61,421 nt of DNA from Candidatus Omnitrophota bacterium (GTDB lineage Bacteria > Omnitrophota > Gorgyraeia > JABMRG01 > JAFGKX01), in the NCBI GenBank assembly GCA_043797125.1, contig JAZDPX010000049.1, forward strand, positions 1-61,421, in the 5' to 3' direction. Under the pieces are notes generated by a model that was not told the origin of the DNA, made no database searches, and saw only the letters and a program-made list of their open reading frames with translations. Numbering within the stretch: position 1 is the stretch's first letter; every line of letters begins with the position of its first letter. Both the position numbers and the translations under genes were made by a program. Below are positions 11,811-37,884 of this stretch, in pieces.

Positions 11811-11850
11811 CCTGCTGCCATGCCTAACGGCAGGTAAACCGGCAGGCAGG
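11811..11850. repeat. Two nested copies of the 20-bp CCTGCC palindrome inside an RBS
   Basis: AAGAG|CCTGC...ACCGGCAGGCAGG|GAG; 40 nt. Confidence 0.7.
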
Positions 11851-11859
11851 GAGTTTCTA

Positions 11860-12939
11860 ATGAGAAACGTATTTATTTTTACTGTAATTATAAGCTTTAT
11901 CTTTACTTGCGCTCTCCTAGCGCAGGAACCAAATGGCGATCCTACCAAAGACGCTGCAGTTAAAGACTACAACGCCGAGGGAGAAGCGTTATTTAAGGCT
12001 GGTAATACGGGTGGCGCTATTATCGCGTTTCAAAAGGCGCTCGAAGCCAATCCAAACGATGAAAAAGCCTATGAAAATTTGGGAACACTGTATTTATCGA
12101 CATCGAATTATGACGATGCTATAAACACCTTTAACAAGTTAATAGAAATTGCGCCAAATTCCGTTACAGCCTATCGCAAACTTGTTTTAATATACAGTAT
12201 GAGAGGTAAGTACAGCGAACTAATATCAACAGCAGAACAGGCAATTAAACTGGACCCCAATAACATGGGCATCATTAGCCATTTAGCCAATGCTTACATT
12301 AAGCAGCAGGAATATGATAAGGCAGTTACGTATTTAAATAAATTAATTGAACAAAATGTGGGCCATCCCAGGATTTACAGTCTTTTGGCAGAGGCCTATT
12401 GCGGATTGTCAGACGAAAAAAAGGCAAGAGAGGTATTTGAAAAAAGCTATTACATGACAAGAGAAACCACAGCCTTTGAGAATGCCCCGGAGAAAGTCCG
12501 CGATGTAAATTCGCTTTTTGATGAAATGAGGGCCGGGGTGCTGGCTAAAAGAGCAAGCAAATGCATTGCAGACGGTAAGCAGGATGAAGGATTGGAATAT
12601 TATAAAAAGGCATTTGAGCTTAATCCAAAAAGTTTTGATGTATGTTACGCGCTTGCCGCCATATACGAAGTAAAAGAGGAACCAGAAAAGGTAAACTTTT
12701 ATCTTAAAAAAGCAGTTGAATTAAATCCTGAATCACTGCAGCTGATTATGGATTCCCCGTATTTTATTTCTTTTAAGGACAGCAAGGAACTTAAAGAGTT
12801 GACGCAAAAGGCAAAGAAGCAAGAAGAGCAGAAGAAAGGCGAGCAGGCACAACAACAGCAGCCGCAACAACAAGCAAACGAGCAGGCACAACAACAGCCA
12901 GAGCAGCAAAAAGAAAAGCAGAACGACAGCATAGAGTGA
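11860..12939 (+). CDS. Secreted tetratricopeptide-repeat protein with Gln-rich tail
   Basis: Signal peptide, multiple TPR repeats, Q/E-rich C-terminus. Confidence 0.85.
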   Translation: MRNVFIFTVIISFIFTCALLAQEPNGDPTKDAAVKDYNAEGEALFKAGNTGGAIIAFQKALEANPNDEKAYENLGTLYLSTSNYDDAINTFNKLIEIAPNSVTAYRKLVLIYSMRGKYSELISTAEQAIKLDPNNMGIISHLANAYIKQQEYDKAVTYLNKLIEQNVGHPRIYSLLAEAYCGLSDEKKAREVFEKSYYMTRETTAFENAPEKVRDVNSLFDEMRAGVLAKRASKCIADGKQDEGLEYYKKAFELNPKSFDVCYALAAIYEVKEEPEKVNFYLKKAVELNPESLQLIMDSPYFISFKDSKELKELTQKAKKQEEQKKGEQAQQQQPQQQANEQAQQQPEQQKEKQNDSIE

Positions 12940-12991
12940 AATAGCTGTCGTTATAATACCCTAAAAAGATTATAATAGTATCTCGACTCGG

Positions 12992-13021
12992 ACGTAGCGC
13001 AGGCTTAAGCCTGCGCTACGT
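12992..13021. repeat. GTAG-type REP-like palindrome
   Basis: ACGTAGCGCAGGCTTAAGCCTGCGCTACGT (perfect). Confidence 0.88.
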
Positions 13022-13037
13022 TTGGAGGCCTTCCAAT

Positions 13038-14477
13038 ATGCAAATAAAGGATTTAAAAATAGCTTTAGTGTCATTGCAGCAGGATGCTGAAAGGGTTCCG
13101 CCTGTAGGCCTAGTTTATCTTGCAACCTATTTAAAAGAAAAAGCAGGTTTAAACAGCAAAAATATCAGGATAATTGATAAAAATTATTTTGATATTTACA
13201 ACGAGATAGACACCTTTAACCCGCACATAATAGGCATTAGCGCGATGACTGTCAATTATCAGGAGGCGACAGATTTTGCCTTTAAGATTAAAAGAAAAGT
13301 CAACACTACTATTATAATCGGCGGCGTTCATATTTCAACACTTCCTGAATCTTTCAGGCAGTGTTTTGATATCGGGGTAATCGGTGAAGGCGAAGAAACT
13401 CTTGCGGATTTAGCCAGGCTTTATGCGGAAAAAGGAAAATTTGATTATGAAGGCCTTGAGGAAATAAAAAGTATTATATATTATAAAAACAACGAGATTA
13501 AGCAAAGCCCGATACGCGATTCATTGGAATTGGATTCGCTGCCTTTGGCTGATTTTAGTTTTGCGCATCCTAATTATTTTAGAAAAGAAGAGATACCGGG
13601 AATAAGCTCTGTCGGCAAAAAATATTATTTAATTTCCTCAAGAGGCTGCCCTTACAGGTGCCTATTTTGTTCTACTGCGCGGTTCTGGGGCAAGATGAGG
13701 CTTCATTCCCCGGAATATACCGCCCGCATAGCTGAAAAGGCACTTAAGGAATATGATGCCGATTTTTTAAAGGTTTTGGATGATTTATTTACTGTCAGCC
13801 CGCAACGCCTAAGGCTGATAAAGACAGAATTTGAAAAAAAAGGAATTCTTGACAAGATAGCAGGCATAGAGTGCTTCGTAAGGGCCAACCTTGTTACCGA
13901 GGAACTTTGCAAGGCAATGAAGGACATAAAGGTAAAAGTGGTGAATTTTGGGTTTGAATCAGGCTCAGAAAAAATATTGGGTTATTTAAAGGCAGGCAGC
14001 GTGACAGTGCAAATGAACAAAGACGCGGTCCTTTTGTGTAAAAAGTACGGTTTTAACGTTTACGGAAGCCTGATGTATGGTTCGCCTACGGAGACAATCC
14101 ATGATATGAAAAAGACCAATGAGTTTATAGACTTCTGCATAGAAAATAACGCATCCTATATTTGGAGTTTTGTATCAACGCCTTTTCCAGACACCCCTTT
14201 CTGGGATATAGCTTTACAGAGAGGCAAGGTTTCCAATGATATGGATTTTGGCCTGTTGAGCCACCATAATGCCGAAAGGCCCTTGCTTTTGGATGAAGGT
14301 ATAAGCACCGAAGAATTTCAAAAAGTTTTTTTAGATGGGAGAAGAAAATTAAGGTCCATGAAATTGAAACTGATTAAAAACTTGATATTGAAGAATTTTC
14401 CAAAAACATTATCATTGGCTGTAAAAGAACCGGGCTATTACGCTAAAAGGGCGTATAGACAGATATTCAAGCAATAG
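13038..14477 (+). CDS. B12-binding radical SAM protein
   Basis: PPVGLVYLA...GGVH...GEGE cobalamin-binding domain. SRGCPYRCLFC and GFESGS. Confidence 0.9.
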   Translation: MQIKDLKIALVSLQQDAERVPPVGLVYLATYLKEKAGLNSKNIRIIDKNYFDIYNEIDTFNPHIIGISAMTVNYQEATDFAFKIKRKVNTTIIIGGVHISTLPESFRQCFDIGVIGEGEETLADLARLYAEKGKFDYEGLEEIKSIIYYKNNEIKQSPIRDSLELDSLPLADFSFAHPNYFRKEEIPGISSVGKKYYLISSRGCPYRCLFCSTARFWGKMRLHSPEYTARIAEKALKEYDADFLKVLDDLFTVSPQRLRLIKTEFEKKGILDKIAGIECFVRANLVTEELCKAMKDIKVKVVNFGFESGSEKILGYLKAGSVTVQMNKDAVLLCKKYGFNVYGSLMYGSPTETIHDMKKTNEFIDFCIENNASYIWSFVSTPFPDTPFWDIALQRGKVSNDMDFGLLSHHNAERPLLLDEGISTEEFQKVFLDGRRKLRSMKLKLIKNLILKNFPKTLSLAVKEPGYYAKRAYRQIFKQ

Positions 14478-14523
14478 CCCGCCTGGCGGGCGAGGCAGGC
14501 CCGCCTGCGGCCGAGAGGGCAAG
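14478..14523. repeat. Two diverged tandem CCTGCC-family copies inside an RBS
   Basis: ATAG|CCCGCCTG...GGCAGG CCCGCCTG...GGCAAG|GAG. Confidence 0.6.
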
Positions 14524-14532
14524 GAGAATAAA

Positions 14533-15327
14533 ATGAATGCTGAAAAACCAAAGATATTAGTTGTTGATGATGAGCCTGACATAGTCGAGCTTTTAAAGCG
14601 TTTTCTTGAAAAGAAGGGATATGAAGTTACGGGGGCGCATAGCGGGAACGAAGCTCTTAAAAGCCTGGAAAAGCAAAAGGCGGATTTGGTGCTGCTTGAT
14701 ATGAAAATGCCCGGGCTTAACGGCGCAGAAGTAGCCAAGATTGCGAAACGAAAATATCCCAGCACAAAGTTTGTCATGCTGACCGGCTTCCCGAATTCGG
14801 CAGAAAAGTTAGCAAAGGCCAATATCCTGGAAGACATATTAATAAAGCCCATCAAGATGCAGGAATTGTTCAATCGTTTAATAGACATTCTAGGACAGGA
14901 AAAAGATGCTACAACATGGAAGCCCCAGCAGAAGATAAAGGGCAGAATTCTCCTTATCAAGGCAAAACTGCTTTTTCTGGAACCAAGTTCAATTACTTAC
15001 AATCTGCTAAGCGAGCATTTTAAATTGCTTTCAGCAGCAGGTGAAGATTATGAAACGCAACAGGCCGGCACAGAAGATGAGGTTCATAAGAAATCGATAT
15101 TATTCAAGCCAAATATATACATAGCGAATGCTTCCTTTTTAAAAAAGAAAGGCAATAAGCTTATTTCCTCTATACCGGAAGAAAGCTATCCGTATCCCGA
15201 GATTATTACCTATGATACGGATAAAGCAGGAAACATTGATAATGCAGAGATAGATAAAGTAACTAAGGCTGTACAGACAACTTGCTTAAAACACGGATTT
15301 ATCGGCATTAAATGGATAGATATTTAA
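14533..15327 (+). CDS. Response regulator (receiver domain + degenerate second receiver-like region)
   Basis: ILVVDDE, LLDMKMPG, KP motifs. Confidence 0.85.
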   Translation: MNAEKPKILVVDDEPDIVELLKRFLEKKGYEVTGAHSGNEALKSLEKQKADLVLLDMKMPGLNGAEVAKIAKRKYPSTKFVMLTGFPNSAEKLAKANILEDILIKPIKMQELFNRLIDILGQEKDATTWKPQQKIKGRILLIKAKLLFLEPSSITYNLLSEHFKLLSAAGEDYETQQAGTEDEVHKKSILFKPNIYIANASFLKKKGNKLISSIPEESYPYPEIITYDTDKAGNIDNAEIDKVTKAVQTTCLKHGFIGIKWIDI

Positions 15328-15384
15328 GATAACACTTTTATCTTGATTTACTTTTAATGTAAGCGTATTATATCCATAATAAAG

Positions 15385-15424
15385 CCTGCCTGCCGGCAGG
15401 CAGGCCTGCCTTGCGGCAGGCAAG
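15385..15424. repeat. Two tandem 20-bp CCTGCC palindromes inside an RBS
   Basis: AAAG|CCTGCCTGCCGGCAGGCAGG CCTGCCTTGCGGCAGGCAAG|GAGAG. Confidence 0.85.
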
Positions 15425-15433
15425 GAGAGAAAG

Positions 15434-16285
15434 ATGAACAGAATAATTGTATTAATTGCGGTGATGGTGTTTTTGTTTGGGACGATTTGTTCTGCGGACA
15501 TGTCCAAGAAGCATACGCTGGATGTCGGGACCGAAGTGTACATGACTAGATTAGAACAGGGAAATGAAGCGGAAGAGCGAGGCATGATGTATGGCGGTGT
15601 CGGTTCTTATACCTATCGCGGCGCAATTTTTCCGGCCGAGGAACTTAACAGGATGATGTTTAAAGCAAAGGGGCAAGTTGCCAGAGGAGAAGCGGATTAC
15701 AACAATACCGGAGATATAGATGATGTATCTCAATGGACTTGGGCAATGGAGTTTCTGTTCGGTTATGGTGTAGTTATTTCAGAGTCATTTGGAATTACGC
15801 CTTTTTTAGGGGCAGGACATAGATATTTTTGCGACGAGCTTGATGGCTTGGTTAGCACGACAAATGAAAGCGGGTACAAAAGAGAATCAAGGTATTATTA
15901 TATCCCTGTTGGCTTGGAGCTTACCACAGACACTGAAAGAGATGAGTCATTTGGCACATCGCAGGGATGGTCTTTTGGGGGCTCGGTAGAATTTGATATT
16001 TTTGTAAAGGGCAGGCAGAAAAATTATTATACAGATGCTGACCCTGCTGCCAGTGATTTTGAAGTAGATCAGGAAGAAGGCTATGGCTGGGGAGGCTCAA
16101 TAAAAATTCAGAAAAACGGAGAAAATTTAGATTTTGCAATAGAGCCTTTTGCAAGGTTATGGAATACTAACGAGACAGAAACAGAAGGAAACATTAACCT
16201 ACCGAACAATTCAATCCCCGCGCACAATTACGAGCCAAAGACCGAAATATTAGAATACGGCGCCAGGGTCACGCTCGCATTTTAA
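15434..16285 (+). CDS. Outer-membrane beta-barrel protein
   Basis: Signal peptide, Gly/aromatic alternating strands, C-terminal Phe. Confidence 0.75.
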   Translation: MNRIIVLIAVMVFLFGTICSADMSKKHTLDVGTEVYMTRLEQGNEAEERGMMYGGVGSYTYRGAIFPAEELNRMMFKAKGQVARGEADYNNTGDIDDVSQWTWAMEFLFGYGVVISESFGITPFLGAGHRYFCDELDGLVSTTNESGYKRESRYYYIPVGLELTTDTERDESFGTSQGWSFGGSVEFDIFVKGRQKNYYTDADPAASDFEVDQEEGYGWGGSIKIQKNGENLDFAIEPFARLWNTNETETEGNINLPNNSIPAHNYEPKTEILEYGARVTLAF

Positions 16286-16292
16286 ATCTTCA

Positions 16293-16318
16293 GTAGCGCA
16301 GGCTTAAGCCTGCGCTAC
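16293..16318. repeat. GTAG-type REP-like palindrome
   Basis: GTAGCGCAGGCTTAAGCCTGCGCTAC between convergent genes. Confidence 0.88.
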
Positions 16319-16358
16319 GGTTGTGGATAAGTTTGCCATCGTGCAGTTTGTGAAAAGA

Positions 16359-17888
16359 TTACTCCAGCCACAGCTTCCTGTCTAAACTGCGGTAGCTGAT
16401 GGCTTCGGATATATGAACAGCTTCTATTAATTCCTTCCCATCCATATCAGCAATAGTCCTTGCGACTTTTCTTATTCTGTCATATGCCCTCGCGCTTAAG
16501 GATAATTCGGTAATAGCCAGCTTAAGAAGCCTGGATGCCTCTTCGGTTAAGTGGCAGAATTTATCCATGTATTTTGGCGTAAGCTGCGCGTTTGAGTTTA
16601 TGCCAAGAGATTCGTATCTTAATTTTTGTATTCTTTTAGCCGCCATTACGCGTTTTTTTATTTCACAGGAGCTTTCAGCCTTGTTTTTATCAATCAGCTG
16701 GGAATATTGCAGAGGCGCAACCTCTATCTGGATGTCTATTCTGTCTAAGAGCGGGCCTGATATTTTATTTAAATAATGCTGAATTTGCACAGGCGTGCAG
16801 CTGCACTCCTTGGTCGGATGCGTGAGAAACCCGCACGGGCAGGGATTCATTGCCGCAACAAGCATGAATTTGGCGGGATATTCTACGGAGCCCGTGACGC
16901 GCGTAATCTGTATTTTACCGTCCTCCAGCGGTTGGCGAAGGCCCTCCAGGATATTTCTTTTAAATTCAGGTAACTCATCCAAAAATAATATCCCGTTGTG
17001 CGCCAGGCTTATTTCGCCCGGCGCAAGCATGGTGCCGCCGCCTAACATGCCGGCATCGGATACGGAGTGGTGAAGGCAGCGGAATGGCCTTTGCTGAATT
17101 AAAAAAGAATTAGTTTTTGTTAATCCGGCGACGCTATGTATTTTTGTGGTTTCCAATGACTCTTCATAGCTTAAGTCATCCAATATCGCCGGTATTCTTT
17201 GCGCCAGCATTGTCTTGCCCTCGCCCGGAGGCCCTATCATCAGGATGTTGTGGGATCCTGCTGTGGCTATCTCTATAGCTCTTTTTGCGTGCTGGTTGCC
17301 CTTAACGTCACAAAAATCAGGCATTACCCAGTCATGTCCGCTTATATCTTTTTTAACCACCTCTTTATACGCAGAAAGCACAATCTCGCCTTTTAAAAAA
17401 CTTGCAAGCTGATTTAAAGTTTCTATCGGGATAACGCGGCAGTCCTTCACCATGGCCGCTTCAGCCGCATTAGCGCTGGGGACCATAAAGGTTTTATCTT
17501 TTTCAACGCTCATCGCGCGCGGCAAGACACCGCTTACAGGCCTTACGATACCGTCTAAGGATAATTCTCCGCATATTATTATGTCTTTTAATGCCTCTTG
17601 TTGTAATGCGCCCCTTGCGGTAAGGATGCCTACAGCGATAGCCAAATCAAAACAAGAACCTTCTTTTTTTATGTTCGCCGGAGCCAGATTAACCGTTATT
17701 TTTGACGAGTTAAAATTAAAGTGAGAATTTCTTATGGCGGATATTACCCTTTTGGCTGATTCCCTGCAAGCTGCATCAGGCAATCCTACGATAGAAAAGC
17801 CGGGTATGCCTCCTGATACATCCACCTCAACATCAACCCTGCAGCCCTTAATGCCGTACGTTGTCCTTGATTCAACTTTTGCCAGCAT
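16359..17888 (-). CDS. comM: YifB/ComM family Mg-chelatase-like AAA+ ATPase
   Basis: IVGLPD, ITVNLAPA, GPPGEGKT, LFLDELPEF, AAMNPCPCG, ISGPLLDRID. Confidence 0.92.
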   Translation of the reverse strand: MLAKVESRTTYGIKGCRVDVEVDVSGGIPGFSIVGLPDAACRESAKRVISAIRNSHFNFNSSKITVNLAPANIKKEGSCFDLAIAVGILTARGALQQEALKDIIICGELSLDGIVRPVSGVLPRAMSVEKDKTFMVPSANAAEAAMVKDCRVIPIETLNQLASFLKGEIVLSAYKEVVKKDISGHDWVMPDFCDVKGNQHAKRAIEIATAGSHNILMIGPPGEGKTMLAQRIPAILDDLSYEESLETTKIHSVAGLTKTNSFLIQQRPFRCLHHSVSDAGMLGGGTMLAPGEISLAHNGILFLDELPEFKRNILEGLRQPLEDGKIQITRVTGSVEYPAKFMLVAAMNPCPCGFLTHPTKECSCTPVQIQHYLNKISGPLLDRIDIQIEVAPLQYSQLIDKNKAESSCEIKKRVMAAKRIQKLRYESLGINSNAQLTPKYMDKFCHLTEEASRLLKLAITELSLSARAYDRIRKVARTIADMDGKELIEAVHISEAISYRSLDRKLWLE

Positions 17889-17902
17889 AGCAGCCTCCTT
17901 AT

Positions 17903-18268
17903 TTAACCTTCGTCATCCCAAAAAGCGTCTTTAAACAGCCTCATCTGCGTCATCTTATAATTTTCGTCAAGCAGAATGGAGACAATATCAAACCTGCATA
18001 TATCATCTTCACATTTATGTTTACTCACCCATATTTTAGCGGCTTGTGTTAATTTCTTTTGTTTAATATAATCAACGGTTTCGAACGGTTCCGCAAACGA
18101 GTTTGATGCCCTAGCCCTTACTTCAATAAAGCACATGCATTCGCCATCTCTGGCAATTATATCGATCTCGCCGCACTTTAATCTAAAGTTCCTCTCAATA
18201 ATTTTATATCCCAGCCTCTTTAAATAGCTCAGCGCTATTCTCTCGCCGATAAGGCCTGTTTTATTCAT
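17903..18268 (-). CDS. yraN: YraN family endonuclease
   Basis: GE..A..YL...GY.I.ERNFR...GEIDII...FIEVR, RFD. Next to comM. Confidence 0.92.
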   Translation of the reverse strand: MNKTGLIGERIALSYLKRLGYKIIERNFRLKCGEIDIIARDGECMCFIEVRARASNSFAEPFETVDYIKQKKLTQAAKIWVSKHKCEDDICRFDIVSILLDENYKMTQMRLFKDAFWDDEG

Positions 18269-18319
18269 ATTAATTTAACGCATCCATTCTATCAGTTGCA
18301 GTTGCGTGCGAGGTTGCTA

Positions 18320-18546
18320 TAGGCTTAAGGCACTGCCGAAAAAACAATAGCGGAAGATTTGGCCACTTGTTTTGGGTGTAGGCAAAACATAGGAGTGCAG
18401 GCTGGGGAAACCGAATGAACCTTTGGATAGTAGGGCAGGCTAAAGCCTGCCCTACTATTTTCTGGTGAATTCGGAGGGGCCCCAGCCGAACGACTATAGT
18501 TTTGCACAAATCTGAAGCGTGTTTTTGAGGCAGTGCCTTAAGCCTA
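18320..18546. mobile_element. MITE-like rod-shaped element, copy A
   Basis: 18-bp terminal inverted repeats TAGGCTTAAGGCACTGCC, nested internal stems, central GTAG-REP at 18427-18458. Homologous (inverted) to 42040-42292. Confidence 0.78.
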
Positions 18547-18550
18547 ATAA

Positions 18551-18814
18551 TTACTCCTCATACGCCGACAGCACAATGCCTGCCAGCTTCTCCTTAAGCG
18601 CTTTATTTAGCAAATCAACAGTATTATACCAGCGCCCGTTTTTACCCTGCTCCTGCGGCATGCTTACAAATAGCCCTTCCTTGCCGGATACTATTCTTAA
18701 GCCCTTAATAAGGAAAGTCCCTGCAACAGATATGTCGGCAAAGCCTTTTAACGGGCCCTCGCCGCCTAGCCTGTGCATGCGCTCAACCCTTATTTCAATT
18801 CCTTCATTACCCAT
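18551..18814 (-). CDS. SpoVG family protein
   Basis: LKGFADI...F.IKGLRIV.GKEGLFVSMP. Confidence 0.88.
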   Translation of the reverse strand: MGNEGIEIRVERMHRLGGEGPLKGFADISVAGTFLIKGLRIVSGKEGLFVSMPQEQGKNGRWYNTVDLLNKALKEKLAGIVLSAYEE

Positions 18815-18964
18815 GTTATCCCCCTTTCCGGAGGCTGGAAGCCTCCTTCTTTTAATTTACCCCTCATATATATAGACGATTTTTTAGGGCAAATAATTTT
18901 AAAATAATCATATTTTTTTCGAATTTGCTTGAATTAGCAATTTTACAGTATTATAATAAGTTTA

Positions 18965-19001
18965 CCCACGCACCAGTCCCGCTTTGCGGGACGGTGCGGG
19001 G
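18965..19001. repeat. CCCGCACC-family palindrome in a 5' UTR
   Basis: CCCACGCACC-AGTCCCGCTTTGCGGGAC-GGTGCGGGG. Confidence 0.65.
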
Positions 19002-19031
19002 CTTCGCTTTAATATCAGCGGGAGGCTGTCT

Positions 19032-19712
19032 ATGCACAAGAAGATACTGCTGGAAGAGCAGGATATAGATTTTACATCAGAAGATCCTTGGCGCGTTTTT
19101 AGGATAATGAGTGAATTTGTCGAAGGGTTTGAGGAATTGGCCCATGTCGGCAACGCTGTTGCTGTTTTTGGGTCATCCAGGACAAAGCCAGCGCGCAAGT
19201 ATTACAAGCTTACCGAGAAGATAGCTTACAATATAGCAAAGGCAGGTTATGCAGTAATAACAGGCGCTGGCCCGGGCATAATGGAAGCTGCTAATAAAGG
19301 GGCAAAAAAGGCAAGCGGCCAATCCATAGGGCTAAATATAGAAGTCCCTTTTGTCCAGAGGCCCAACCGTTACGTTACGCGCCTTTTGAGCTTTCGATAT
19401 TTTTTCTGCCGTAAAGTGATGTTCGCAAAATATGCCAAGGCCTTTATAGTAATGCCCGGAGGCTTCGGCACGATGGATGAATTTTTTGAAGCTGCTACCC
19501 TTATTCAAACAGGTAAGATCACGCCTTTTCCGGTTATTTTAGTTGGCAAAGAGTTTTGGAGCGGCCTTATTGATTGGATGACTAAAAAGATGTATCGGGA
19601 AGGCAGGGTCAGCAAAGAAGATTTAAAAATCTTTCAAGTAATCGATAGCCCTAAGGAAATAGTTGCCTGTATAGATAATTTTTATAAAAAGACAACAAAG
19701 AAAAAAGGTTAA
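19032..19712 (+). CDS. LOG family (TIGR00730-like) nucleotide phosphoribohydrolase
   Basis: VFGSSR, TGAGPGIMEA, PGGFGTMDE. ATG 19032 follows GGAGG. Confidence 0.9.
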   Translation: MHKKILLEEQDIDFTSEDPWRVFRIMSEFVEGFEELAHVGNAVAVFGSSRTKPARKYYKLTEKIAYNIAKAGYAVITGAGPGIMEAANKGAKKASGQSIGLNIEVPFVQRPNRYVTRLLSFRYFFCRKVMFAKYAKAFIVMPGGFGTMDEFFEAATLIQTGKITPFPVILVGKEFWSGLIDWMTKKMYREGRVSKEDLKIFQVIDSPKEIVACIDNFYKKTTKKKG

Positions 19713-19726
19713 ACACCCATTCTTTA

Positions 19727-30083: not shown

Positions 30084-30189
30084 CGCTTAAGTTTTATCGG
30101 GACTGCGTCCGGCTTAGCCGCAGTAGAATTTCAGAGTAGGTAAGCTTCGCCGAGACTGCGCCTAAGTGGGGAGAAAATAAAGATTTTGC

Positions 30190-30293: not shown

Positions 30294-30301
30294 ATGAATA
30301 C

Positions 30302-30337
30302 TTAAGTTATGTCAACCCCATGGTTGACATAACTTAA
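30302..30337. repeat. Perfect 16-bp inverted repeat
   Basis: TTAAGTTATGTCAACC-CCAT-GGTTGACATAACTTAA. Confidence 0.8.
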
Positions 30338-30373
30338 TCTCCTTCGAACTTCTTCTCTGAAGATATGAATTAA

Positions 30374-30411
30374 ATCCCGCACCAATTTTCGAAGAAAATT
30401 TGGTGCGGGAT
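30374..30411. repeat. CCCGCACC-family palindrome upstream of an RBS
   Basis: ATCCCGCACCAATTTTCGAAGAAAATTTGGTGCGGGAT. Confidence 0.7.
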
Positions 30412-30423
30412 ATGAGGATCCCC

Positions 30424-31875
30424 ATGCTACTCAAAAAAGACAAAGACATAATAGCCTCATACCTTGAAGATTACTCCAACTTAAAAGGCGGATTCGCGGA
30501 ATCCGTAGCTATTCCGGAAGCAGAAGCCGAGATAATTGAATTGCTGAAACAGTGCAGCCAAAGCAAGACCCCGGTTACAATATCCGGGGCAGGCACCGGC
30601 GTGGCAGGAGGTCGTATCCCTTTCGGCGGCGTTGCGCTTTCCATGGAGAAGTTCAATAAAGTAATATCAATCGGAAAAACAGCAACTGTCCAAGCCGGAG
30701 TCCTGCTGCAGGATTTCATGGATGAGGTTGAACGCAAAGGTTTTTTCTATCCGCCGGATCCTACGGAAAAAGATTCTTTTCTTGGCGCTAATGTCTCGAC
30801 AGGCGCTTCCGGAGCCAGGACATTTAAATTCGGGACCACAAGAGATTATGTAAAACGCCTGAGGATAGTGCTTTCAAGCGGCGAGATAGTGGATATAGAG
30901 CGCGGCAAGGTTTATGCTGGCAAAAACAATATCCTTAAAATACCTACAGCCTCTGGCAGGTTTGTCGAAATAGAGTTGCCAAGTTATAAAATGCCCGATA
31001 CAAAGAATGCTGCCGGTTATTATGTAAAGCCCGGCATGGATGCTGTAGATTTATTTATCGGGCAGGACGGAACCCTTGGAGTAATAACAGAGGTGAGTTT
31101 AAACCTATTGGATAAGCCGGAGTTGATTTTAGACTGTTACGCCTTTTTTAAAAAAGATGATGATTGTCTCGAATTCATTTATGAAGCCAAAAAAGGCATG
31201 GATGCGCTCTCTCTGGAATATTTCGACGAAAATGCTTTAAATTTGTTGCGCCCAAAACATCCTGAAATCCCCAAAGGCATTAAGGCAGCGTGTTTTTTTG
31301 AGCAGATTGCCGCAAAGGAAAATGAGGATGAATTGACAGCAAGTTGGGCCTGCCTTATGCAAAAACACAACGCTGATTTGGACAGTTCATGGTTTGTCCA
31401 GACAAAGAAGGATAGAGATAAGCTGCATAATTTTAGGCACGATGTCCCGGATAGCGTAAATGAGATTATTAAAAAGACTGACCGGATAAAAGTAGGCACG
31501 GATATCGCAGTGCCTGATGATAAATTAGCAGAAATGCTTACCTTTTATAAAAAAGAGCTTGCAAAATCCGGCATAGACTATTTAATTTTCGGCCATATCG
31601 GCAACAGCCATCTTCACGTAAACATGCTTCCAAAAGATAAATCAGAATACGAAAGGGCAAAACAGATTTATTTAGAGTTTGTAAAAAAAGCAATATCGTT
31701 AAAAGGGACAGTTTCCGCGGAGCATGGTATAGGCAAGGTAAAACACGGTTATCTTAAGCTTATGTACGGTGAAGAGGCAATAGCCCAAATGGTAAAGGTA
31801 AAGAAGGCCCTTGACCCGGCCTGCATATTAGGGCTCGATAATATTTTCCCCAAAGAGCTCTTATTGCAAAATTAA
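30424..31875 (+). CDS. FAD-linked oxidoreductase (GlcD/D-lactate dehydrogenase family)
   Basis: GAGTGVAGG, YPPDPT, G.DGTLGVITE, FGHIGNSHLH, SAEHGIG. Confidence 0.9.
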   Translation: MLLKKDKDIIASYLEDYSNLKGGFAESVAIPEAEAEIIELLKQCSQSKTPVTISGAGTGVAGGRIPFGGVALSMEKFNKVISIGKTATVQAGVLLQDFMDEVERKGFFYPPDPTEKDSFLGANVSTGASGARTFKFGTTRDYVKRLRIVLSSGEIVDIERGKVYAGKNNILKIPTASGRFVEIELPSYKMPDTKNAAGYYVKPGMDAVDLFIGQDGTLGVITEVSLNLLDKPELILDCYAFFKKDDDCLEFIYEAKKGMDALSLEYFDENALNLLRPKHPEIPKGIKAACFFEQIAAKENEDELTASWACLMQKHNADLDSSWFVQTKKDRDKLHNFRHDVPDSVNEIIKKTDRIKVGTDIAVPDDKLAEMLTFYKKELAKSGIDYLIFGHIGNSHLHVNMLPKDKSEYERAKQIYLEFVKKAISLKGTVSAEHGIGKVKHGYLKLMYGEEAIAQMVKVKKALDPACILGLDNIFPKELLLQN

Positions 31876-31946
31876 TCATTCGGTTGTAATAGCAAAGAAG
31901 TTGTGATATAGTAAATAATAAATCTTAATTAAAGGAGTGAAGCAAT

Positions 31947-32699
31947 ATGCCCGCTATTATTAATATAGACACGTTACCGCAGAAAACACGAAAGCAGGTT
32001 GCAAACTACGCGCAACAGCTTATAAAGCTGCACAGTGAGAATATTATATCAATTTTTATATACGGCAGCGCCGCGGGAACTAACTACGTACATGGAAAAT
32101 CAGATGTCAATATTGCTGTAATTTTAAAAGACCTTAAGTTTACCGATTTAAAAAAATCCTTGAAGCTCATAAATTGGGGAATACGTAAAAGAATAGCCGC
32201 GCCTTTGATTTTAACATTAAGGCATATTCAGACATCAACAGATATATTTCCTTTAGAATTTTTGGAAATGAAGGATAACAATTGTCTTTTATACGGGCAG
32301 GACCTGCTTAGCGAACTTCCGGTCAGCACAGCCAACATGAGACTTCAATGCGAACAAGAGCTTAAGGGTAAGCTTATAAGGATAAGGCAGGCGTATTTGG
32401 AAATAGGCTTAAAGAAAAAAGGCATAGAGGCCCTGTTAAAAGAGTCTCTAAGCTCGCTTTTCCCCGCATTTAGAGCGCTTTTGCGCTTAAAGACAAGGCA
32501 GATTCCATCTGTTGATAAAGAAAAGATAATTAAAGGTCTATCTGATAATTTTAGCATAGACTCAAGCGTTTTTTTTGCTATATTGCACGACAAAAAGAAC
32601 GACGAAAAGATACGCTCTAAAGATATCGAGCCTTTTTTTGAGGGATATATTAATGAAATTCAGAAGCTCGCAGTGGAAGTAGATAAACTGAGAGCCTAA
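31947..32699 (+). CDS. Nucleotidyltransferase-domain protein (TPM/LemA-associated)
   Basis: YGSAA...SDVN, DIFPLEF. Confidence 0.75.
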   Translation: MPAIINIDTLPQKTRKQVANYAQQLIKLHSENIISIFIYGSAAGTNYVHGKSDVNIAVILKDLKFTDLKKSLKLINWGIRKRIAAPLILTLRHIQTSTDIFPLEFLEMKDNNCLLYGQDLLSELPVSTANMRLQCEQELKGKLIRIRQAYLEIGLKKKGIEALLKESLSSLFPAFRALLRLKTRQIPSVDKEKIIKGLSDNFSIDSSVFFAILHDKKNDEKIRSKDIEPFFEGYINEIQKLAVEVDKLRA

Positions 32700-32705
32700 T
32701 GTCAA

Positions 32706-33497
32706 ATGACAAATATCAAAAGACTATTTCTAACAGCCATATTATTATTTGTAGCAACCCTGGCTTTTGCACGAGATGAAGTTAAGCTGCCTCAATACAA
32801 AGGCTATGTTAATGACTTTGCCAATGTTTTGAGTTCAGCTGACAGTCAGGCAATTGAATCTCTCGCGCGCGAGCTGGACACAAAGACAACAGCTCAGATT
32901 GCTGTCGTGACCGTACAAACGACAAAACCGCTTGAAATTGAACAATACGCTGTCAAGCTCTTTGAAAAATGGGGCATAGGCACAAAAGCAAAAGACAACG
33001 GCGTACTTTTATTAATGGCAGCTAATGACAAAGCAATAAGGATTGAAACAGGTTATGGCCTGGAAGGCGCTATTCCGGATGCATTGGCAAGCCAGATTAT
33101 ATATCAGGTTATAATGCCTAAGTTTAAAGACGGGAATTTAAGCAAGGGGCTGTTGTTGGGCGCTGCCGCAATTTGCCAACTTGTTGCCAAAGAATATAAT
33201 ACCCAGCTTTCCGGGCTATCTAACTATGCCGAAGACCTGGATGCGGCAACTACGAATAATGCAGTAGTGCTGTCTCGCTTTTTTATTACATTGTTATTTT
33301 TTATTCTTATTTTTGGGTTCAGGTCAGGTCTTTTATTTTATTTTCTATTTGGCAGCATGGGCAGAAGAAGAGGCGGTAAGTGGTATGGCACTGGTTACCA
33401 TGGCTCAGGAGGCGGTTTTGGCGGTGGTTTTGGAGGAGGCTTTGGTGGTTTTGGAGGGGGTATGTCCGGCGGCGGCGGAGCCAGCGGACACTGGTAA
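32706..33497 (+). CDS. TPM-domain protein (YgcG-like)
   Basis: VNDFANVL, IETGYGLEGAIPD, Gly-rich tail. Confidence 0.9.
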   Translation: MTNIKRLFLTAILLFVATLAFARDEVKLPQYKGYVNDFANVLSSADSQAIESLARELDTKTTAQIAVVTVQTTKPLEIEQYAVKLFEKWGIGTKAKDNGVLLLMAANDKAIRIETGYGLEGAIPDALASQIIYQVIMPKFKDGNLSKGLLLGAAAICQLVAKEYNTQLSGLSNYAEDLDAATTNNAVVLSRFFITLLFFILIFGFRSGLLFYFLFGSMGRRRGGKWYGTGYHGSGGGFGGGFGGGFGGFGGGMSGGGGASGHW

Positions 33498-33536
33498 AAA
33501 ACGTGTAAAGTGAAAAGTGTAAAGTTGGAGGAAAAT

Positions 33537-34103
33537 ATGAAAACTTGGATGATTGTATTAATTGTAATAGCTGTTATAATACTTATAGCGGGCGGATGGT
33601 TTATTAACGGCTTGAACACGGTTGTTGCTTTGCATGAAAATGTCTCAACTTTGTGGGCGCAGGTGGAAAACCAACTCCAAAGAAGAAACGACCTTGTGCC
33701 TAATTTGGTGAGCACGGTAAAAGGATACGCCGCGCATGAACAAGGGCTGTTTACCGAGGTAACCAGGCTTAGAAGCCAATGGAGCAACGCGCAGACCACC
33801 CAAGATAAAATAAGCGCTGCCGAAGGCCTTGGTTCTGCTATATCGAGGCTGCTTTTAGTTGTAGAAAATTACCCCGAGCTAAAGGCTAATCAGATTTTTT
33901 TAAGTTTACAGGCTCAACTAGAAGGCACGGAAAATAGAATTGTAGTTGAAAGAAACAGGTATAATGAGTCGGTAAGGCAGTTTAATACCTATATCAGGAC
34001 TGTTTTTGGCAGTTTTTTTGCCTCGGTAAGGGGGCTGAAAGAGCCTGCCGCATATTTTCAGGCAGACGCGGCAGCTAAGGCTGTTCCAAAGGTTGAATTT
34101 TAA
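33537..34103 (+). CDS. lemA: LemA family protein
   Basis: WAQVENQLQRR.DLVPNLV..VKGYA.HE, ENYPELKA, LEGTENRI. Confidence 0.93.
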   Translation: MKTWMIVLIVIAVIILIAGGWFINGLNTVVALHENVSTLWAQVENQLQRRNDLVPNLVSTVKGYAAHEQGLFTEVTRLRSQWSNAQTTQDKISAAEGLGSAISRLLLVVENYPELKANQIFLSLQAQLEGTENRIVVERNRYNESVRQFNTYIRTVFGSFFASVRGLKEPAAYFQADAAAKAVPKVEF

Positions 34104-34108
34104 TTAAG

Positions 34109-34128
34109 CCTGCCTACCGGCAGGCAGG
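34109..34128. repeat. 20-bp CCTGCC palindrome inside an RBS
   Basis: AAG|CCTGCCTACCGGCAGGCAGG|GAGAGG. Confidence 0.85.
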
Positions 34129-34140
34129 GAGAGGCTAAAT

Positions 34141-35451
34141 ATGAAAAAGCCGAAAATAACCTTAGATACAAAGAACATAGAGCCTTTTGTCAGTAAAAAG
34201 GAGATTGATTTAATTCTGCCTGAAATCGCAGTTGCAGATGAGAAGATAAAAAAAGGCACAGGATACGGCGCGGAGTTTTTAGGATGGCTTCATATAGGCA
34301 GCACAATAGGCGAGAAACTGATATCTGATATTGAAAACACCGCTGTGGATATTCGCCGCAATTCCGATATATTATTATGCATAGGCATAGGCGGCTCATA
34401 TCTTGGATCCAGGGCAGGTATAGAATTTTTATCGAAGCCTTTTCGTGACTGCTATAAAAACAAGGATCTTTCTGTGCATTTTTGCGGCAACAACTTGAGC
34501 TCAGATTATTTGGCAAGCCTGCTTGATATTATTGACACCGGAAAAAGTTTATATGTCAATGTAATATCAAAATCAGGCACAACTATTGAGCCTGCATTGG
34601 CGTTCAGGGTCGTGTACGATTTTATGAAAAAGCGCTACAGTAAAAAAGAGATTGCAAAACGAGTAATTTGTACAACAGATCAAAAAAAGGGAGCTTTAAA
34701 AAATCTGGCTATCAAGGAAAGATTTAAGACATTTGTTATACCTGATAATATCGGAGGGAGGTTTTCAGTCCTTAGCCCTGTCGGGCTTTTTCCTATGGCC
34801 TGCGCCGGCATAGATATAAAGGAACTGCTTAGCGGCGTTGCTGATTTTGAGAAATATGTTTTTGACTCTAGACCTGAAGAAAACATCGCTTATCAATACG
34901 CGGGTATCCGCAACCTCCTGTACAGGTCAGGCAAGCAGATTGAGATTTTGGCAGGCTTTCATCCGTCCCTGCATTATTTGCTTGAGTGGTGGAAACAATT
35001 ATTTGCAGAAAGCGAAGGCAAGGACTCAAAAGGCATTTTCCCGGCAATAGTTGATTTTACTCAAGACCTGCATTCGCTTGGCCAGCTGATACAACAGGGC
35101 GAGAGAAATATTTTTGAGACATTCATGGTTGTAAACAAATCATTCAGCCGGCTTGCAATTCCGCGCTTTAAAGACGATATAGACAATCTGAATTATATAG
35201 CAGGTAAAGACCTTGATTGGGTAAATACTCAAGCCTACCTTGGGACAATTGCCGCCCACATCGAAGGGGGCGTGCCTAATATGTCTATTCAAATACCTCA
35301 AAGATCAGCTTATTATTTGGGGCAGATATATTATTTCTTTGAAGTAGCTGTAGCTGTTTCCGGGTATCTTTTGAATATAAATCCGTTTGACCAGCCCGGA
35401 GTCGAGGCCTATAAGCAGAATATGTACAGGTTGCTGAAAAAACAGGTATGA
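34141..35451 (+). CDS. pgi: Glucose-6-phosphate isomerase
   Basis: GIGGSYLG, SKSGTT, GGRFSVL, QLFAESEGK, DLHSLGQ, NPFDQPGVE. Confidence 0.95.
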   Translation: MKKPKITLDTKNIEPFVSKKEIDLILPEIAVADEKIKKGTGYGAEFLGWLHIGSTIGEKLISDIENTAVDIRRNSDILLCIGIGGSYLGSRAGIEFLSKPFRDCYKNKDLSVHFCGNNLSSDYLASLLDIIDTGKSLYVNVISKSGTTIEPALAFRVVYDFMKKRYSKKEIAKRVICTTDQKKGALKNLAIKERFKTFVIPDNIGGRFSVLSPVGLFPMACAGIDIKELLSGVADFEKYVFDSRPEENIAYQYAGIRNLLYRSGKQIEILAGFHPSLHYLLEWWKQLFAESEGKDSKGIFPAIVDFTQDLHSLGQLIQQGERNIFETFMVVNKSFSRLAIPRFKDDIDNLNYIAGKDLDWVNTQAYLGTIAAHIEGGVPNMSIQIPQRSAYYLGQIYYFFEVAVAVSGYLLNINPFDQPGVEAYKQNMYRLLKKQV

Positions 35452-35459
35452 ATATAGAG

Positions 35460-35580
35460 ATAGAGTATCAGAGAATCAGAGTATCAGAACGAGAGTATTA
35501 GATTATCAGAGCATCAGATAAAATCTGATAATCTGATGCTCTGGTAATCCCGCTCTGATAATCTGATGATCCGATATTCT
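35460..35580. repeat. Inverted pair of octamer tandem arrays (ATCAGAGN / TCTGATAA)
   Basis: GAGTATCAGAGAATCAGAGTATCAGA...AATCTGATAATCTGATGCTCTG...TCTGATAATCTGATGATCCGAT. Confidence 0.8.
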
Positions 35581-35595
35581 TATTTGCTTAAGCCC

Positions 35596-36294
35596 ATGAA
35601 CTATTGCAACAATGCGGTTACTTTTCTCGTAGCCATTATGTTATGCATGGCTAACGAAACATATGCAATGCCTACAGACGGCCCCACAATGCCTGAAGAA
35701 GGAAAATTCAAAATTGGCGTGCAGTCAAACATGCTCTTTGAAAAACAGATGAAGCGGCCAAAAGGCGAAGTGGAAAGCGAACAGTATTTTAGCCTCCTTT
35801 CATATGCGCCTTCGGGTTGGTTCTGTCTGGATTTTAGGACAGGATGGGGCAGTATCAAGTTTAAGCCTGAAGGCAGCGATACTATAAATTATAACACTGC
35901 ATTTGCTGGAGGTTATGGTTTTAGGGCCAAGGTTATAGATGGCGCAAAATATATCCCAGATATATTATGGGGTTTTCAGCATATAAGTGTTCACCCTGAC
36001 CCGAGAAAGGTAAACGAAGTTAAGCATGAGATATGTATGGATGACTGGCAGGTTTCTGTAATATGCGCTAAAAAGTACTCTTTTTTTTATCCTTACGCAG
36101 CTGTCAAATATTCTAAGGCGGTGTTAACGCGCATAACCAGCCCGGAAAATGAAAGAAAAAGGTCAGGTTCGGTTGACAGGGTAGGGTTGGCCATAGGCTC
36201 TGATTTTTCACTTGGAGATCATATAGTAGTTAGTATAGAAGGCCGTTTGTTTGATGAACAGGCTCTAAACGCGAATTTAAGCTGGCGGTTTTAA
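35596..36294 (+). CDS. Outer-membrane beta-barrel protein
   Basis: Signal-like N-terminus, beta-strand pattern, C-terminal WRF. Start uncertain. Confidence 0.65.
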   Translation: MNYCNNAVTFLVAIMLCMANETYAMPTDGPTMPEEGKFKIGVQSNMLFEKQMKRPKGEVESEQYFSLLSYAPSGWFCLDFRTGWGSIKFKPEGSDTINYNTAFAGGYGFRAKVIDGAKYIPDILWGFQHISVHPDPRKVNEVKHEICMDDWQVSVICAKKYSFFYPYAAVKYSKAVLTRITSPENERKRSGSVDRVGLAIGSDFSLGDHIVVSIEGRLFDEQALNANLSWRF

Positions 36295-36414
36295 AAAAGC
36301 AATTTTTTCTTAAAATTTTTTTTGTTTCGAGTAGAAAAGGCTTGACATTTATTTTATTACTTGCTAAACTTAAAAGGATACTAAATAATAGTCAAGAGGA
36401 GGTGAAAAAAGAAT

Positions 36415-36774
36415 ATGCGTATTTCAAAGAGCTTAAAAGCTGCAATTACTGGTGTTTTAATACTATCTTTTATAGCGGTAGCTCTGCCGGCATTTGCTCA
36501 GGAAGGCAGTGTCATTGAGAAAATGGGTAAAAAACTTGGCAGAGGCTTGGTTAACGTCGCAACAGGATGGATTGAATTGCCAAAGAATATATATGACACA
36601 AGTGTTGAAACTAATAACCCGCTGATGGGAATAACATACGGCACGCTTAAAGGTGTTGGTATGACAGTAGTAAGGACCGGCGCTGGTGCATATGATATAG
36701 TAACGTTTTTGTTCCCGTTGCCAGAAGAGTATAAGCCAATACTTGAGCCTGAGTTTGTATTTGAGGAAAAGTAA
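36415..36774 (+). CDS. TIGR04073-like exported protein (paralog of 27116)
   Basis: KLGRGLVNVATGWIELPK...RTGAGAYDIVTF..P...EPEFV. Confidence 0.8.
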   Translation: MRISKSLKAAITGVLILSFIAVALPAFAQEGSVIEKMGKKLGRGLVNVATGWIELPKNIYDTSVETNNPLMGITYGTLKGVGMTVVRTGAGAYDIVTFLFPLPEEYKPILEPEFVFEEK

Positions 36775-36786
36775 ACCTCATTTTTG

Positions 36787-36831
36787 AAAGGCGAGCCCGG
36801 TTTATTTAAAAGATAAACCGCTCGCCTTTTT
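36787..36831 (+). terminator. Intrinsic terminator
   Basis: AAAGGCGAG...CTCGCCTTTTT. Confidence 0.7.
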
Positions 36832-36883
36832 AACTATTTTTATGACGCCGGGTATTTAAATAAATTATATTTGAGGTGTTTTT

Positions 36884-37237
36884 ATGAATAATACAAAAGA
36901 GCGTAGACGATATATACGAATGGAAGACCCCGTGCCCGTTACTGTCAGGTTTAAAACCGAAAATAGCATAGAGCAAATACAGACCAATTCCAAAAATATC
37001 AGCGCTACAGGAATGATGATTGAGATTGAAAAAGGCATACCTCTTGAAACTACGGTAGAAATAAGCCTTGCACCAAAAAAGACCCTCAACCCTATTCATA
37101 TAAACGCAAAAGTTGTCAGGTCTGAAAAGGACAAAGGCGAATCTTTGTATAATACGGGTCTTGAGTTTACAAAGATTGAAGAGGATAACAAAAATACCTT
37201 TTTAAAATTTTTGTGCGATACTATATATAAAATATAG
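36884..37237 (+). CDS. PilZ-domain protein
   Basis: ERRRYIR, NISATG. Confidence 0.88.
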   Translation: MNNTKERRRYIRMEDPVPVTVRFKTENSIEQIQTNSKNISATGMMIEIEKGIPLETTVEISLAPKKTLNPIHINAKVVRSEKDKGESLYNTGLEFTKIEEDNKNTFLKFLCDTIYKI

Positions 37238-37254
37238 CAATTGCTACTTACGTT

Positions 37255-37803
37255 ATGTTCTTTTTTTCTTCAACGATTATAAAAAGACTCGGCCTTTTAT
37301 TAGTTCTTGTTTTAATTTATCCTGCCTCCCTATTTTTATTCGATACTTTCCTTGCTATCAAAGAACAGGGGTTTATCTCTCCGATTAAAACAGAAGGCCA
37401 AATCCCAATAAGGGCGGATGTTTTCGGAGATGGATCTTTTGGGGCAAGACGCAGCAACGGGACAAGGCAGCATAAGGGAATAGATATAAAAGCGCCGGTA
37501 GGTGAGCCTGTTTTAGCGTCAAAGAGCGGAATTGCTGAAACAGGATGCGTCGAGGGTGGTATGGGCAAATATGTAAAGATCAGGCATCGTAATAATTACA
37601 TTACGGTGTATGGCCACCTAAGCGAGATATCCGTTAAAAATAATCGATGGGTCTGGCAGGGAGCCAAGATCGGCGAAGTTGGAAAGACAGGCAACGCCAA
37701 TTATAAACGAATGCAGGAGCACCTGCATTTTGAGATAAGGCACGAAAATAAGCAGTTGGACCCGCTCAATTTTCTGCAGAAAGAGAGGCAAGCGAAAAAT
37801 TAA
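37255..37803 (+). CDS. M23 family metallopeptidase
   Basis: HKGID, YGHL, HLHFE. Confidence 0.9.
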   Translation: MFFFSSTIIKRLGLLLVLVLIYPASLFLFDTFLAIKEQGFISPIKTEGQIPIRADVFGDGSFGARRSNGTRQHKGIDIKAPVGEPVLASKSGIAETGCVEGGMGKYVKIRHRNNYITVYGHLSEISVKNNRWVWQGAKIGEVGKTGNANYKRMQEHLHFEIRHENKQLDPLNFLQKERQAKN

Positions 37804-37864
37804 TCTGTTTTATAGTAGAAAATTTCACTTGCAAATATAAAAATCGAATGTATAATATAAAAAG

Positions 37865-37884
37865 CCTGCCTATCGGCGGGCAAG
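37865..37884. repeat. 20-bp CCTGCC palindrome inside an RBS
   Basis: AAAG|CCTGCCTATCGGCGGGCAAG|GAGG. Confidence 0.8.

Follow-up and report, generated by a model that had tools for sequence, protein, structure and literature searches.

A 20-bp palindrome present as a discrete insert in Shine-Dalgarno sequences of an Omnitrophota genome, with copies in many phyla

Introduction

The described systems closest to the element treated here are, I) the repetitive extragenic palindromic (REP) elements with their RAYT transposases (TnpA-REP, Y1 HUH) (Nunvar et al. 2010, PMC2817692), and II) the NTS/SRM hairpin repeats with the Ssn GIY-YIG single-strand nucleases, for which a reading as insertion-sequence-like elements was raised by the authors themselves (Chenal et al. 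2025, PMC11893778). This study concerns a perfect 20-bp palindrome, CCTGCCTGCCGGCAGGCAGG, in a stretch of 61,421 nt from a Candidatus Omnitrophota bacterium (contig JAZDPX010000049.1, hereafter the window). The palindrome is probably a non-coding, discrete, insertable unit that enters without target duplication, prefers the junction AAG^GAG in this genome (^ marks the point of insertion), and belongs to a family present in many phyla and in phages. It lacks the defining features of both REP/RAYT and NTS/SRM, which are nevertheless the closest kinds.

With REP elements, the resemblance lies in short GC-rich palindromes that occur in tens of intergenic copies, are non-coding and cause no target duplication, in a genome that carries RAYT-like genes. 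The differences are several. The element starts with CCTG and has no GTAG head, its flanks vary, and it flanks no RAYT gene found here. The 20-mer is identical across phyla, whereas REPs are lineage-specific and co-vary with their RAYT; it stands singly or in direct tandem, whereas REPs form inverted REPIN/BIME pairs; and it has a defined target junction inside ribosome-binding sites.

With the NTS/SRM repeats, as far as the cited work describes them, the element shares that small hairpin repeats are found in distant phyla close to small GIY-YIG genes of a single domain: at one locus here and at no fewer than six places in other class genomes, 20-40 nt separate the palindrome from such a gene downstream. 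In contrast, the 20-mer fails the published motif CGTCATTCCCGCGMAVGCGGGAATCYRG (PMC11893778). The genome also holds about 18 canonical NTS/SRM hairpins, GTCATTCCCGCGAAAGCGGGAATCC (e.g., contig C13 29387, C23 62529, and C47 23459), which match the Neisseria motif of that publication. This SRM set is separate from the palindrome, and one of its copies is interrupted by the palindrome.

Other small elements offer partial parallels. IS200/IS605-type elements and their gene-less derivatives move by 'peel and paste', a hairpin-dependent process in which no target is duplicated and insertion takes place next to a short sequence; they carry two different subterminal hairpins and have a fixed target of 4-5 nt on one side. 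The absence of target duplication is shared (four filled/empty sets of exactly 20 bp, see below), whereas here one perfect 20-bp palindrome is the entire element. The GC-rich palindromic clusters of fungal mitochondria are very short and act as inserts in AT-rich DNA, also close to tRNA genes; their hosts and sequences differ from those of the 20-mer, and we know of no link between these clusters and ribosome-binding sites. Rickettsia palindromic elements are 100-150 bp long, are confined to one lineage, and tolerate insertion into genes, as is also the case for the 20-mer (in-frame LPAGRQ). Literature searches returned no paper with the 20-mer or such an element; the supplements of PMC11893778, which lay outside the search, might list related hairpins.

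Materials and methods

The genome comprises 2.06 Mb in 54 contigs at 42% G+C, and the window is contig C49. Gene starts were called with a crude caller of our own, giving 1,631 genes and 158,099 intergenic bases. Copy numbers were compared with those of 20 shuffled palindromes matched to the 20-mer in composition. The working list of copies, in which up to 4 edits were allowed, holds 64 good copies, of which 12 lie in one family of miniature inverted-repeat transposable elements (MITEs) and 52 do not. The class sample consisted of 201 genomes, searched for the 20-mer with up to 2 mismatches and for the reversed pattern as control; the closest relatives belong to other genera of the same family, at 40-70% protein identity. 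The names rpoD, yajC, aspartate kinase, isopropylmalate-synthase-like (leuA-like), rplU, and those of the secreted and outer-membrane proteins were given from translations, without a family search; the name pgi rests on a Pfam match. An Rfam scan of the window gave tRNA as its sole match.

Results

The palindrome is a discrete insert

Genome-wide, 22 exact copies of the 20-mer are present, rising to 60 within 3 mismatches and 94 within 4, and none of the shuffled palindromes yielded a single copy at up to 3 mismatches. The core pattern matched the window four times, where 0.03 matches were expected. The good copies are intergenic or lie at the edges of open reading frames (ORFs), and by our reading the 20-mer is free of stop codons in all frames.

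Presence or absence of exactly these 20 bp distinguishes the members of four paralogous sequence sets in this genome, without target duplication, which bears out the initial annotation of this DNA in its proposal that insertion duplicates no target. I) In the tandem tRNA-Gln(UUG) genes on contig C14, the T-stem of one gene is filled in its 3' strand, and its neighbour has GGTTCGAATC directly followed by CACCTCCGCCA. II) In a MITE of ~250 bp with 19 aligned copies, 12 are filled and 7 lack exactly those 20 bp (cagcctg^cact), a split that follows no other indel marker in the alignment; the single filled and empty pair noticed at first extends to these 19 copies. III) An NTS/SRM hairpin at C4 35256 reads GTCATTCCCGCGGAAG, the 20 bp, and CGGGAATCC, and the same sequence occurs at C45 128066 with no insert. 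IV) A leader hairpin beside tRNA genes, GTCCCGAGGAxCG..AGCGACGAGGG, is filled in one of five copies, two of which precede small GIY-YIG genes.

The unit also moves in composite form. A nested composite of 41 nt, in which a second, diverged copy sits at the central GCC^GGC, occurs at four loci, three of which are the ribosome-binding sites of unrelated genes (rpoD, the leuA-like gene, and a TPR gene, the block at 11811 in the window being one of the four composites) and one of which lies elsewhere (C13 139216). Its recurrence at unrelated loci indicates that what moves is delimited by the ends of the unit. Tandem copies directly abut each other.

Preference for ribosome-binding sites

Of the 52 non-MITE copies, 16, spread over 14 loci, are followed immediately by GAG(G), and a start codon was called 8-16 nt beyond the copy. 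A random intergenic junction would show the same arrangement in 812 of 158,099 cases (0.51%), i.e., ~0.27 copies would be expected, so that the bias towards ribosome-binding sites, whose absence genome-wide had been named as a possible refutation, is present. Two further loci lie beyond the 4-edit list, namely, the one at 11811 in the window and C23 76560, upstream of a start at C23 76590, and six more ribosome-binding sites carry the sister subfamily alone, CCCGCCTGCGGGCGAG..CAGG^GAGG. The total amounts to about 22 affected genes, including rpoD, yajC, those for aspartate kinase and the isopropylmalate-synthase-like protein, pgi, rplU, and several for secreted or outer-membrane proteins. Since rpoD, yajC, aspartate kinase, pgi, and rplU are among them, the insert cannot abolish expression.

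The flanks point in the same direction. Across 97 outward flanks, GAG was found at 12.7 times, GAGG at 28 times, CTT (the complement of AAG^) at 6.2 times, and GAT at 5.1 times the intergenic expectation. As AAG^GAG is the Shine-Dalgarno core, a ribosome-binding site best fits both half-site preferences. Many copies have neither an AAG^ nor a ^GAG flank, and among the matches listed across phyla no strong motif was apparent. Half-sites occur outside ribosome-binding sites as well, i.e., in the SRM loop (GAAG^) and in tRNA D-loops (TA^GAGC), the latter at 4 of the 30 places examined in other class genomes where a palindrome arm is followed by GAG. The quantified targeting of AAG^GAG and the empty orthologous sites described below are new here.

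Copies in the window and the rebuilt site

The five hairpin blocks and the MITE copy reported by the initial annotation are all located where it had placed them (Table 1), and removing the blocks in silico indeed yields AAGAGGAG, ATAGGAG, AAAGGAG, AAGGAG, and AAAGGAGG. In all five, GAG(G) follows directly, then 5-9 nt, then the ATG of a real ORF. The 283-aa and 121-aa proteins have no Pfam match. The copy at 37865 lies 7 nt downstream of a promoter-like site read by eye, TTGCAA-17-TATAAT.

Table 1. Palindrome blocks, MITE copies, and downstream genes in the window (MITE, miniature inverted-repeat transposable element).
Positions	Strand	Feature	Mismatches or edits	Site at the 3' end or junction	Start codon	Downstream ORF	Product
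11811..11850	+	Nested composite; a diverged inner copy interrupts the outer palindrome at the central GCC^GGC		Rebuilt AGGGAG, 11848-11853	ATG 11860	11860-12939	TPR lipoprotein
14478..14523	+	Two tandem hairpins of the diverged sister subfamily CCCGCC..GGCGAG: CCCGCCTGGCGGGCGAGGCAGG, then CCCGCCTGCGGCCGAGAGGGCAAG; block runs from the TAG stop of a radical-SAM gene (14477) to the GAG of the response-regulator site		GAG	ATG 14533	14533-15327	Response regulator
15385..15404	+	Exact palindrome; promoter-side member of a spacer-less tandem pair	0 mismatches
15405..15424	+	Diverged copy; second member of the tandem pair	3 edits	Ends in CAAG	ATG 15434	15434-16285	283-aa protein
34109..34128	+	Single copy between the LemA stop codon and the pgi ribosome-binding site	1 mismatch		ATG 34141	34141-35451	Glucose-6-phosphate isomerase (pgi)
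37865..37884	+	Single diverged copy; stem retains a G.U-compatible T.G pair	4 edits	GAGG follows	ATG 37894	37894-38259	121-aa protein
42192..42211	+	Variant CCTGCCTGACGGTAGGCAGG in a MITE of ~250 bp with 18-bp terminal inverted repeats, about 42042-42290
18321..18548	-	Second MITE copy of the window; precise empty site		cagcctg^cact

With CAGG as the last bases of the element, AGGGAGG is still present across the junction CAGG^GAGG, and at the window sites the 3' end of the copy (CAGG or CAAG) was seen to recreate AGGGAG or AAGGAG at unchanged spacing to the start codon, as had been proposed. The change from CAGG to CAAG is found in several copies and restores the canonical AAGGAG; at 15405-15424, for example, CAAG^GAG reads as this site. 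At each of the five window sites RNAfold predicted a stem, either one of 7 bp closed by a tetraloop (GCCUGCC/GGCAGGC) or a longer composite one, at -14.9 to -30.3 kcal/mol, and AGGGAG, AAGGAG, or AAGGAGG was predicted to be unpaired at all five. Three stem substitutions were observed (C14 60054, C23 76560, and window 37865), all G.U-compatible on the sense strand. An intrinsic terminator was rejected as an identity for the hairpin, as the sense-strand hairpin is followed by GGAG and T-runs are present on the antisense strand only.

Judged from promoter-like hexamers, no more than about 10 nt would separate the hairpin from the predicted 5' end of the mRNA at 11811, at 15385, and, by eye, at 37865. 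Such matches are no more frequent than in shuffles (12 vs 9.6), and the blocks at 14478 and 34109 lie inside operons, directly after a stop codon. Given matches at the level of shuffles and two intra-operon sites, any effect on mRNA stability or translation is conjectural; the ribosome-binding site may serve the element as a 'safe harbour', and the hairpin may be 'tuning translation', as the initial annotation had it.

Empty sites in relatives

The second possible refutation, a lack of precise empty sites in orthologues, was likewise not borne out, as empty sites were found for three window genes. For pgi, all five genome relatives and one close metagenome relative (6/6) have a plain GGAG/GAGG without the element; relative G001 reads TTAAGGAGA across the junction. 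For the 283-aa gene, the sole orthologue (in G002) reads AAAAAG^GAGAG behind TTGACT-17-TATAAT. For the 121-aa gene, G002 carries the uninterrupted AAAAAGGAGGTA behind TTGCAT-17-TATAAT, which matches the window flanks minus the insert, and the orthologues in G004 and G016 are empty too. For the response regulator, no clear orthologue was found in the relatives searched. Element copies are 80-100% identical to the consensus and the surrounding leaders are diverged, which argues for gain here and against loss in the relatives. A protein scan of metagenomes with pgi gave nothing above 69% identity, and no strain-level empty alleles were found.

Occurrence in other genomes and in phages

The 20-mer was found in 97 of the 201 class genomes, at 0-55 copies each, and the reversed control in none. 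The exact 20-mer occurs in at least 121 stretches of a species-genome collection that belong, by record title, to many phyla. The matches listed include Patescibacteria groups, Bacteroidota, Omnitrophota, Planctomycetes, Gamma- and Deltaproteobacteria, Bdellovibrionales, Thermodesulfovibrio, and Chloroflexi; four of those from Bacteroidota are not labelled as metagenome-assembled genomes (Winogradskyella echinorum, Flagellimonas yonaguniensis, Longitalea luteola, and Flavivirga sp.). Among viral contigs, the 20-mer was found in 40 stretches, between terminase, portal, and tail genes.

Ribosome-binding sites are not the only location of the element, which occurs in loops of tRNA genes, in other hairpin loops, and in coding sequence too. 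Of the first 30 copies listed for class relatives, only 2 belong to the ribosome-binding-site type, and many outside copies occupy tRNA-gene fragments or the loops of SRM-like hairpins, or have short repeats, direct or tandem heptamer-like, on both sides. Deleting the palindrome at the 121 cross-phylum loci listed gave no new complete tRNA gene, the interrupted copies being fragments. In-frame copies in coding sequence, translated as LPAGRQ, were seen in Patescibacteria and Chloroflexi (L088, L084, L113, and L099), where an additional base preserves the reading frame; judged by translation, with no family search, L088 is ribosomal protein S6-like and L099 has an SMGNPH motif like diaminopimelate epimerase. 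The element is therefore real, but the preference for ribosome-binding sites characterises this lineage rather than the family as a whole.

Candidate mobilising enzymes

Two Y1 (RAYT-like) genes are present in the genome, on contigs C45 and C29. The former (C45:18125-18694; L001 1465-2034) encodes 189 aa and has inverted GGGGACGGTTCACCCC repeats, two on each side, in a classic REPtron layout. A RAYT- or IS200-like gene flanked by the 20-mer, which had been suggested as something to look for, was not found: among RAYT-like genes the flanks read were those of the C45 gene, and they hold a different REP of the GGGGACGGTTCACCCC type, which rules out a RAYT link through this gene. The gene on C29 (L002 1429-2778) encodes a 449-aa fusion with an N-terminal Y1-transposase-like domain, the tyrosine motif RHIHLNP, and a long C-terminal extension, and it may be domesticated or inactive. 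The gene that follows it has a family-2 hairpin in its ribosome-binding site; the genome-wide scan list gave no good 20-mer copy beside the fusion.

Four small GIY-YIG genes were found, with the UPF0213 proteins 1ZG2 and 1YWL as best solved relatives and no NCBIfam family above the cut-off. Three of the four adjoin tRNA genes, followed in the case of those on C45 and C47 by a repeat of the tRNA 3' end. The small (89-97 aa) UPF0213-type gene in the window (1083-1352, + strand) lies 240 nt downstream of tRNA-Arg(CCT) (765-841), across a GC-rich structured spacer. The C45 and C47 paralogues stand between a tRNA gene and its duplicated 3' end, like a cassette inserted in a tRNA gene. The palindrome is located upstream of one of the four genes, at 32 nt, where it is an insertion into the cassette leader hairpin, four of the five leader copies being without it; in other class genomes it stands directly upstream of small GIY-YIG genes at the six or more places mentioned above.

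Genes between neighbouring copies are ordinary, with names from translations alone: an EF-G-like protein, toxin-antitoxin-like pairs, and membrane proteins. Within 250 nt of the viral copies, 207 ORFs were found, and the scan took in 137 of them, the other 70 being mostly short or overlapping frames; it gave one GIY-YIG and no Y1 protein. Among the Y1-negative class genomes, the palindrome is present in 5 of the 20 listed (19 more are not listed), one of them with 19 copies. Co-occurrence was rejected as a way of naming the enzyme, as both Y1 and small GIY-YIG genes are too widespread in the class to discriminate.

Discussion

A proposed mechanism for entry into ribosome-binding sites

The following sequence of events is proposed for the element as a mobile unit. 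AAG^GAG is the preferred target in this genome, and since this is the Shine-Dalgarno core, the element has thereby entered the ribosome-binding sites of ~22 genes. In the mRNA, the predicted 7-bp hairpin would stop just before the rebuilt and unpaired site, at the original distance to the start codon. Integration would take place on single-stranded DNA and be catalysed in trans, with which the hairpin-loop targets, the lack of target duplication, and the end-defined movement of composites are consistent. Candidate enzymes present in the genome are the two RAYT-like Y1 proteins and the four small UPF0213-type GIY-YIG proteins. The insert itself may be near neutral, or it may act as a mildly useful 5' leader hairpin.

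A bolder version is tempting, and we offer it as a tentative possibility. The 20-mer would be among the smallest mobile DNAs, a hairpin moved in trans by a single-strand enzyme (UPF0213/Ssn-like GIY-YIG or RAYT), carried by phages between phyla, entering exposed AAG^GAG-like single strands (Shine-Dalgarno sequences, tRNA loops, and hairpin loops), and adopted here by ~1% of genes, rpoD, yajC, and rplU among them, as a hairpin in the 5' leader.

Several observations weigh against the reading as a mobile unit targeted to ribosome-binding sites. Copies at these sites are more diverged than those elsewhere (3 of 16 exact vs 19 of 36), so that selection for retention may add to targeting. Flanking direct repeats of 6-10 nt accompany 11 of the 52 copies (null mean 2.1, maximum 7), which a model without target duplication does not explain. 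In other class genomes, flanks in which an arm is followed by GAG number 58 per 831 copies (~7%) vs 11 per 53 (21%) here, and across phyla GAG begins 9 of the 242 flanks among the matches listed. Neither gene context nor co-occurrence in the class genomes ties any enzyme to the element: Y1 was found in 162 and small GIY-YIG in 171 of the 201 genomes, and neither tracks copy number, e.g., G106 has 19 copies and no Y1 match, and G093 has 20 copies and no match to the GIY-YIG query used here. The start codons come from crude, self-made gene calling, and, with the nearest relatives at only 40-70% protein identity, the empty sites are not strain-level alleles.

Alternative explanations

The hairpin with GGAG could be a cis-regulatory leader of the host, a 5' mRNA stabiliser or translation tuner whose mobility is secondary. 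The placement of the hairpin close to the predicted mRNA 5' end at 11811, 15385, and 37865, the three G.U-compatible stem substitutions, and the restoration of AAGGAG by the CAGG to CAAG change would all suit such a function. We regard this as rather unlikely, since orthologous genes show no conservation of the hairpin, the genes downstream have unrelated functions, the promoter-like matches stay at shuffle level, and the identical sequence occurs in non-genic contexts and in other phyla.

Spread between ribosome-binding sites by template switching or short-patch gene conversion would need no transposase, with the AAAG and GAGG flanks acting as microhomology. These flanks are indeed common to all copies at ribosome-binding sites, and whole composites have been copied between such sites, i.e., the 41-nt composite and a 49-nt subfamily composite (C29 24288 and C36 54696). 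The same units are nevertheless seen in unrelated flanks, including the 41-nt composite at C13 139216, and the insertions in tRNA genes, MITEs, and hairpin loops lack such microhomology, which makes this route improbable.

It is a little less probable still that intergenic insertion is random and that the concentration at ribosome-binding sites reflects harmless copies being kept and others purged. The greater age of the copies at these sites (mean about 2 edits, and the low share of exact copies given above) and the weak bias in other genomes speak for it. Selection gives no account, however, of the identical junction G^GAG, rather than one a few bases upstream, in 15 genes and the leuA-like gene, leaves the spacer-less tandem copies unexplained, and does not predict that AAG and GAG half-sites are enriched outside ribosome-binding sites too (TA^GAGC in the tRNA D-loop and GAAG^ in the SRM loop).

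A transcription-factor operator marking a regulon, suggested by a perfect palindrome near promoter-like sites, is very improbable and was rejected, as copies lie in operons right after stop codons (14478 and 34109), in tRNA genes, MITEs, coding sequence, and phages, and the genes share no common function.

Significance

The most conserved short signal of bacterial mRNAs can itself be an insertion hot spot, and a 20-bp element can occupy the Shine-Dalgarno sequence without silencing essential genes because its own end regenerates the signal. One way to explain an unchanged 20-mer across phyla and in phages is a conserved recognition machinery, which, if found, could yield a site-specific tool for single-stranded DNA, as the Ssn nucleases did. 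In annotation, these hairpins account for many GC-rich leaders that look 'odd' and many broken tRNA copies in assemblies of uncultured bacteria.

Additional repeats and copies

Away from ribosome-binding sites, many copies have short direct repeats on both sides or are embedded in tandem heptamer-like runs (C45 126265, C21 19569, and C13 140562; L229, L143, L124, and L092); at L229, TCTCGTCTCTCGCT is present on each side of the palindrome. On contig C32, identical palindrome-bearing junction repeats at 568-587 and 2713-2732 (L215), 2,145 bp apart, bracket a nucleotidyltransferase/HEPN-like pair and a second toxin-antitoxin-like pair (named from translations), an arrangement that resembles a small cassette array. 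At C36 16414-16434, a copy precedes, by 12 nt and with no GGAG in between, the ATG of what is probably uvrC, an ORF of 538 aa whose N-terminal domain is of the GIY-YIG type.

The window further contains a GTAG-headed palindrome of 26-30 bp, GTAGCGCAGGCTTAAGCCTGCGCTAC, at 12992-13021 and 16293-16319, inside a repeat of ~60 bp with at least 8 copies in the genome, which is probably the true REP of a RAYT. One of its copies stops 4 nt ahead of the GGAGG of the radical-SAM gene, and a close variant forms the centre of the MITE.

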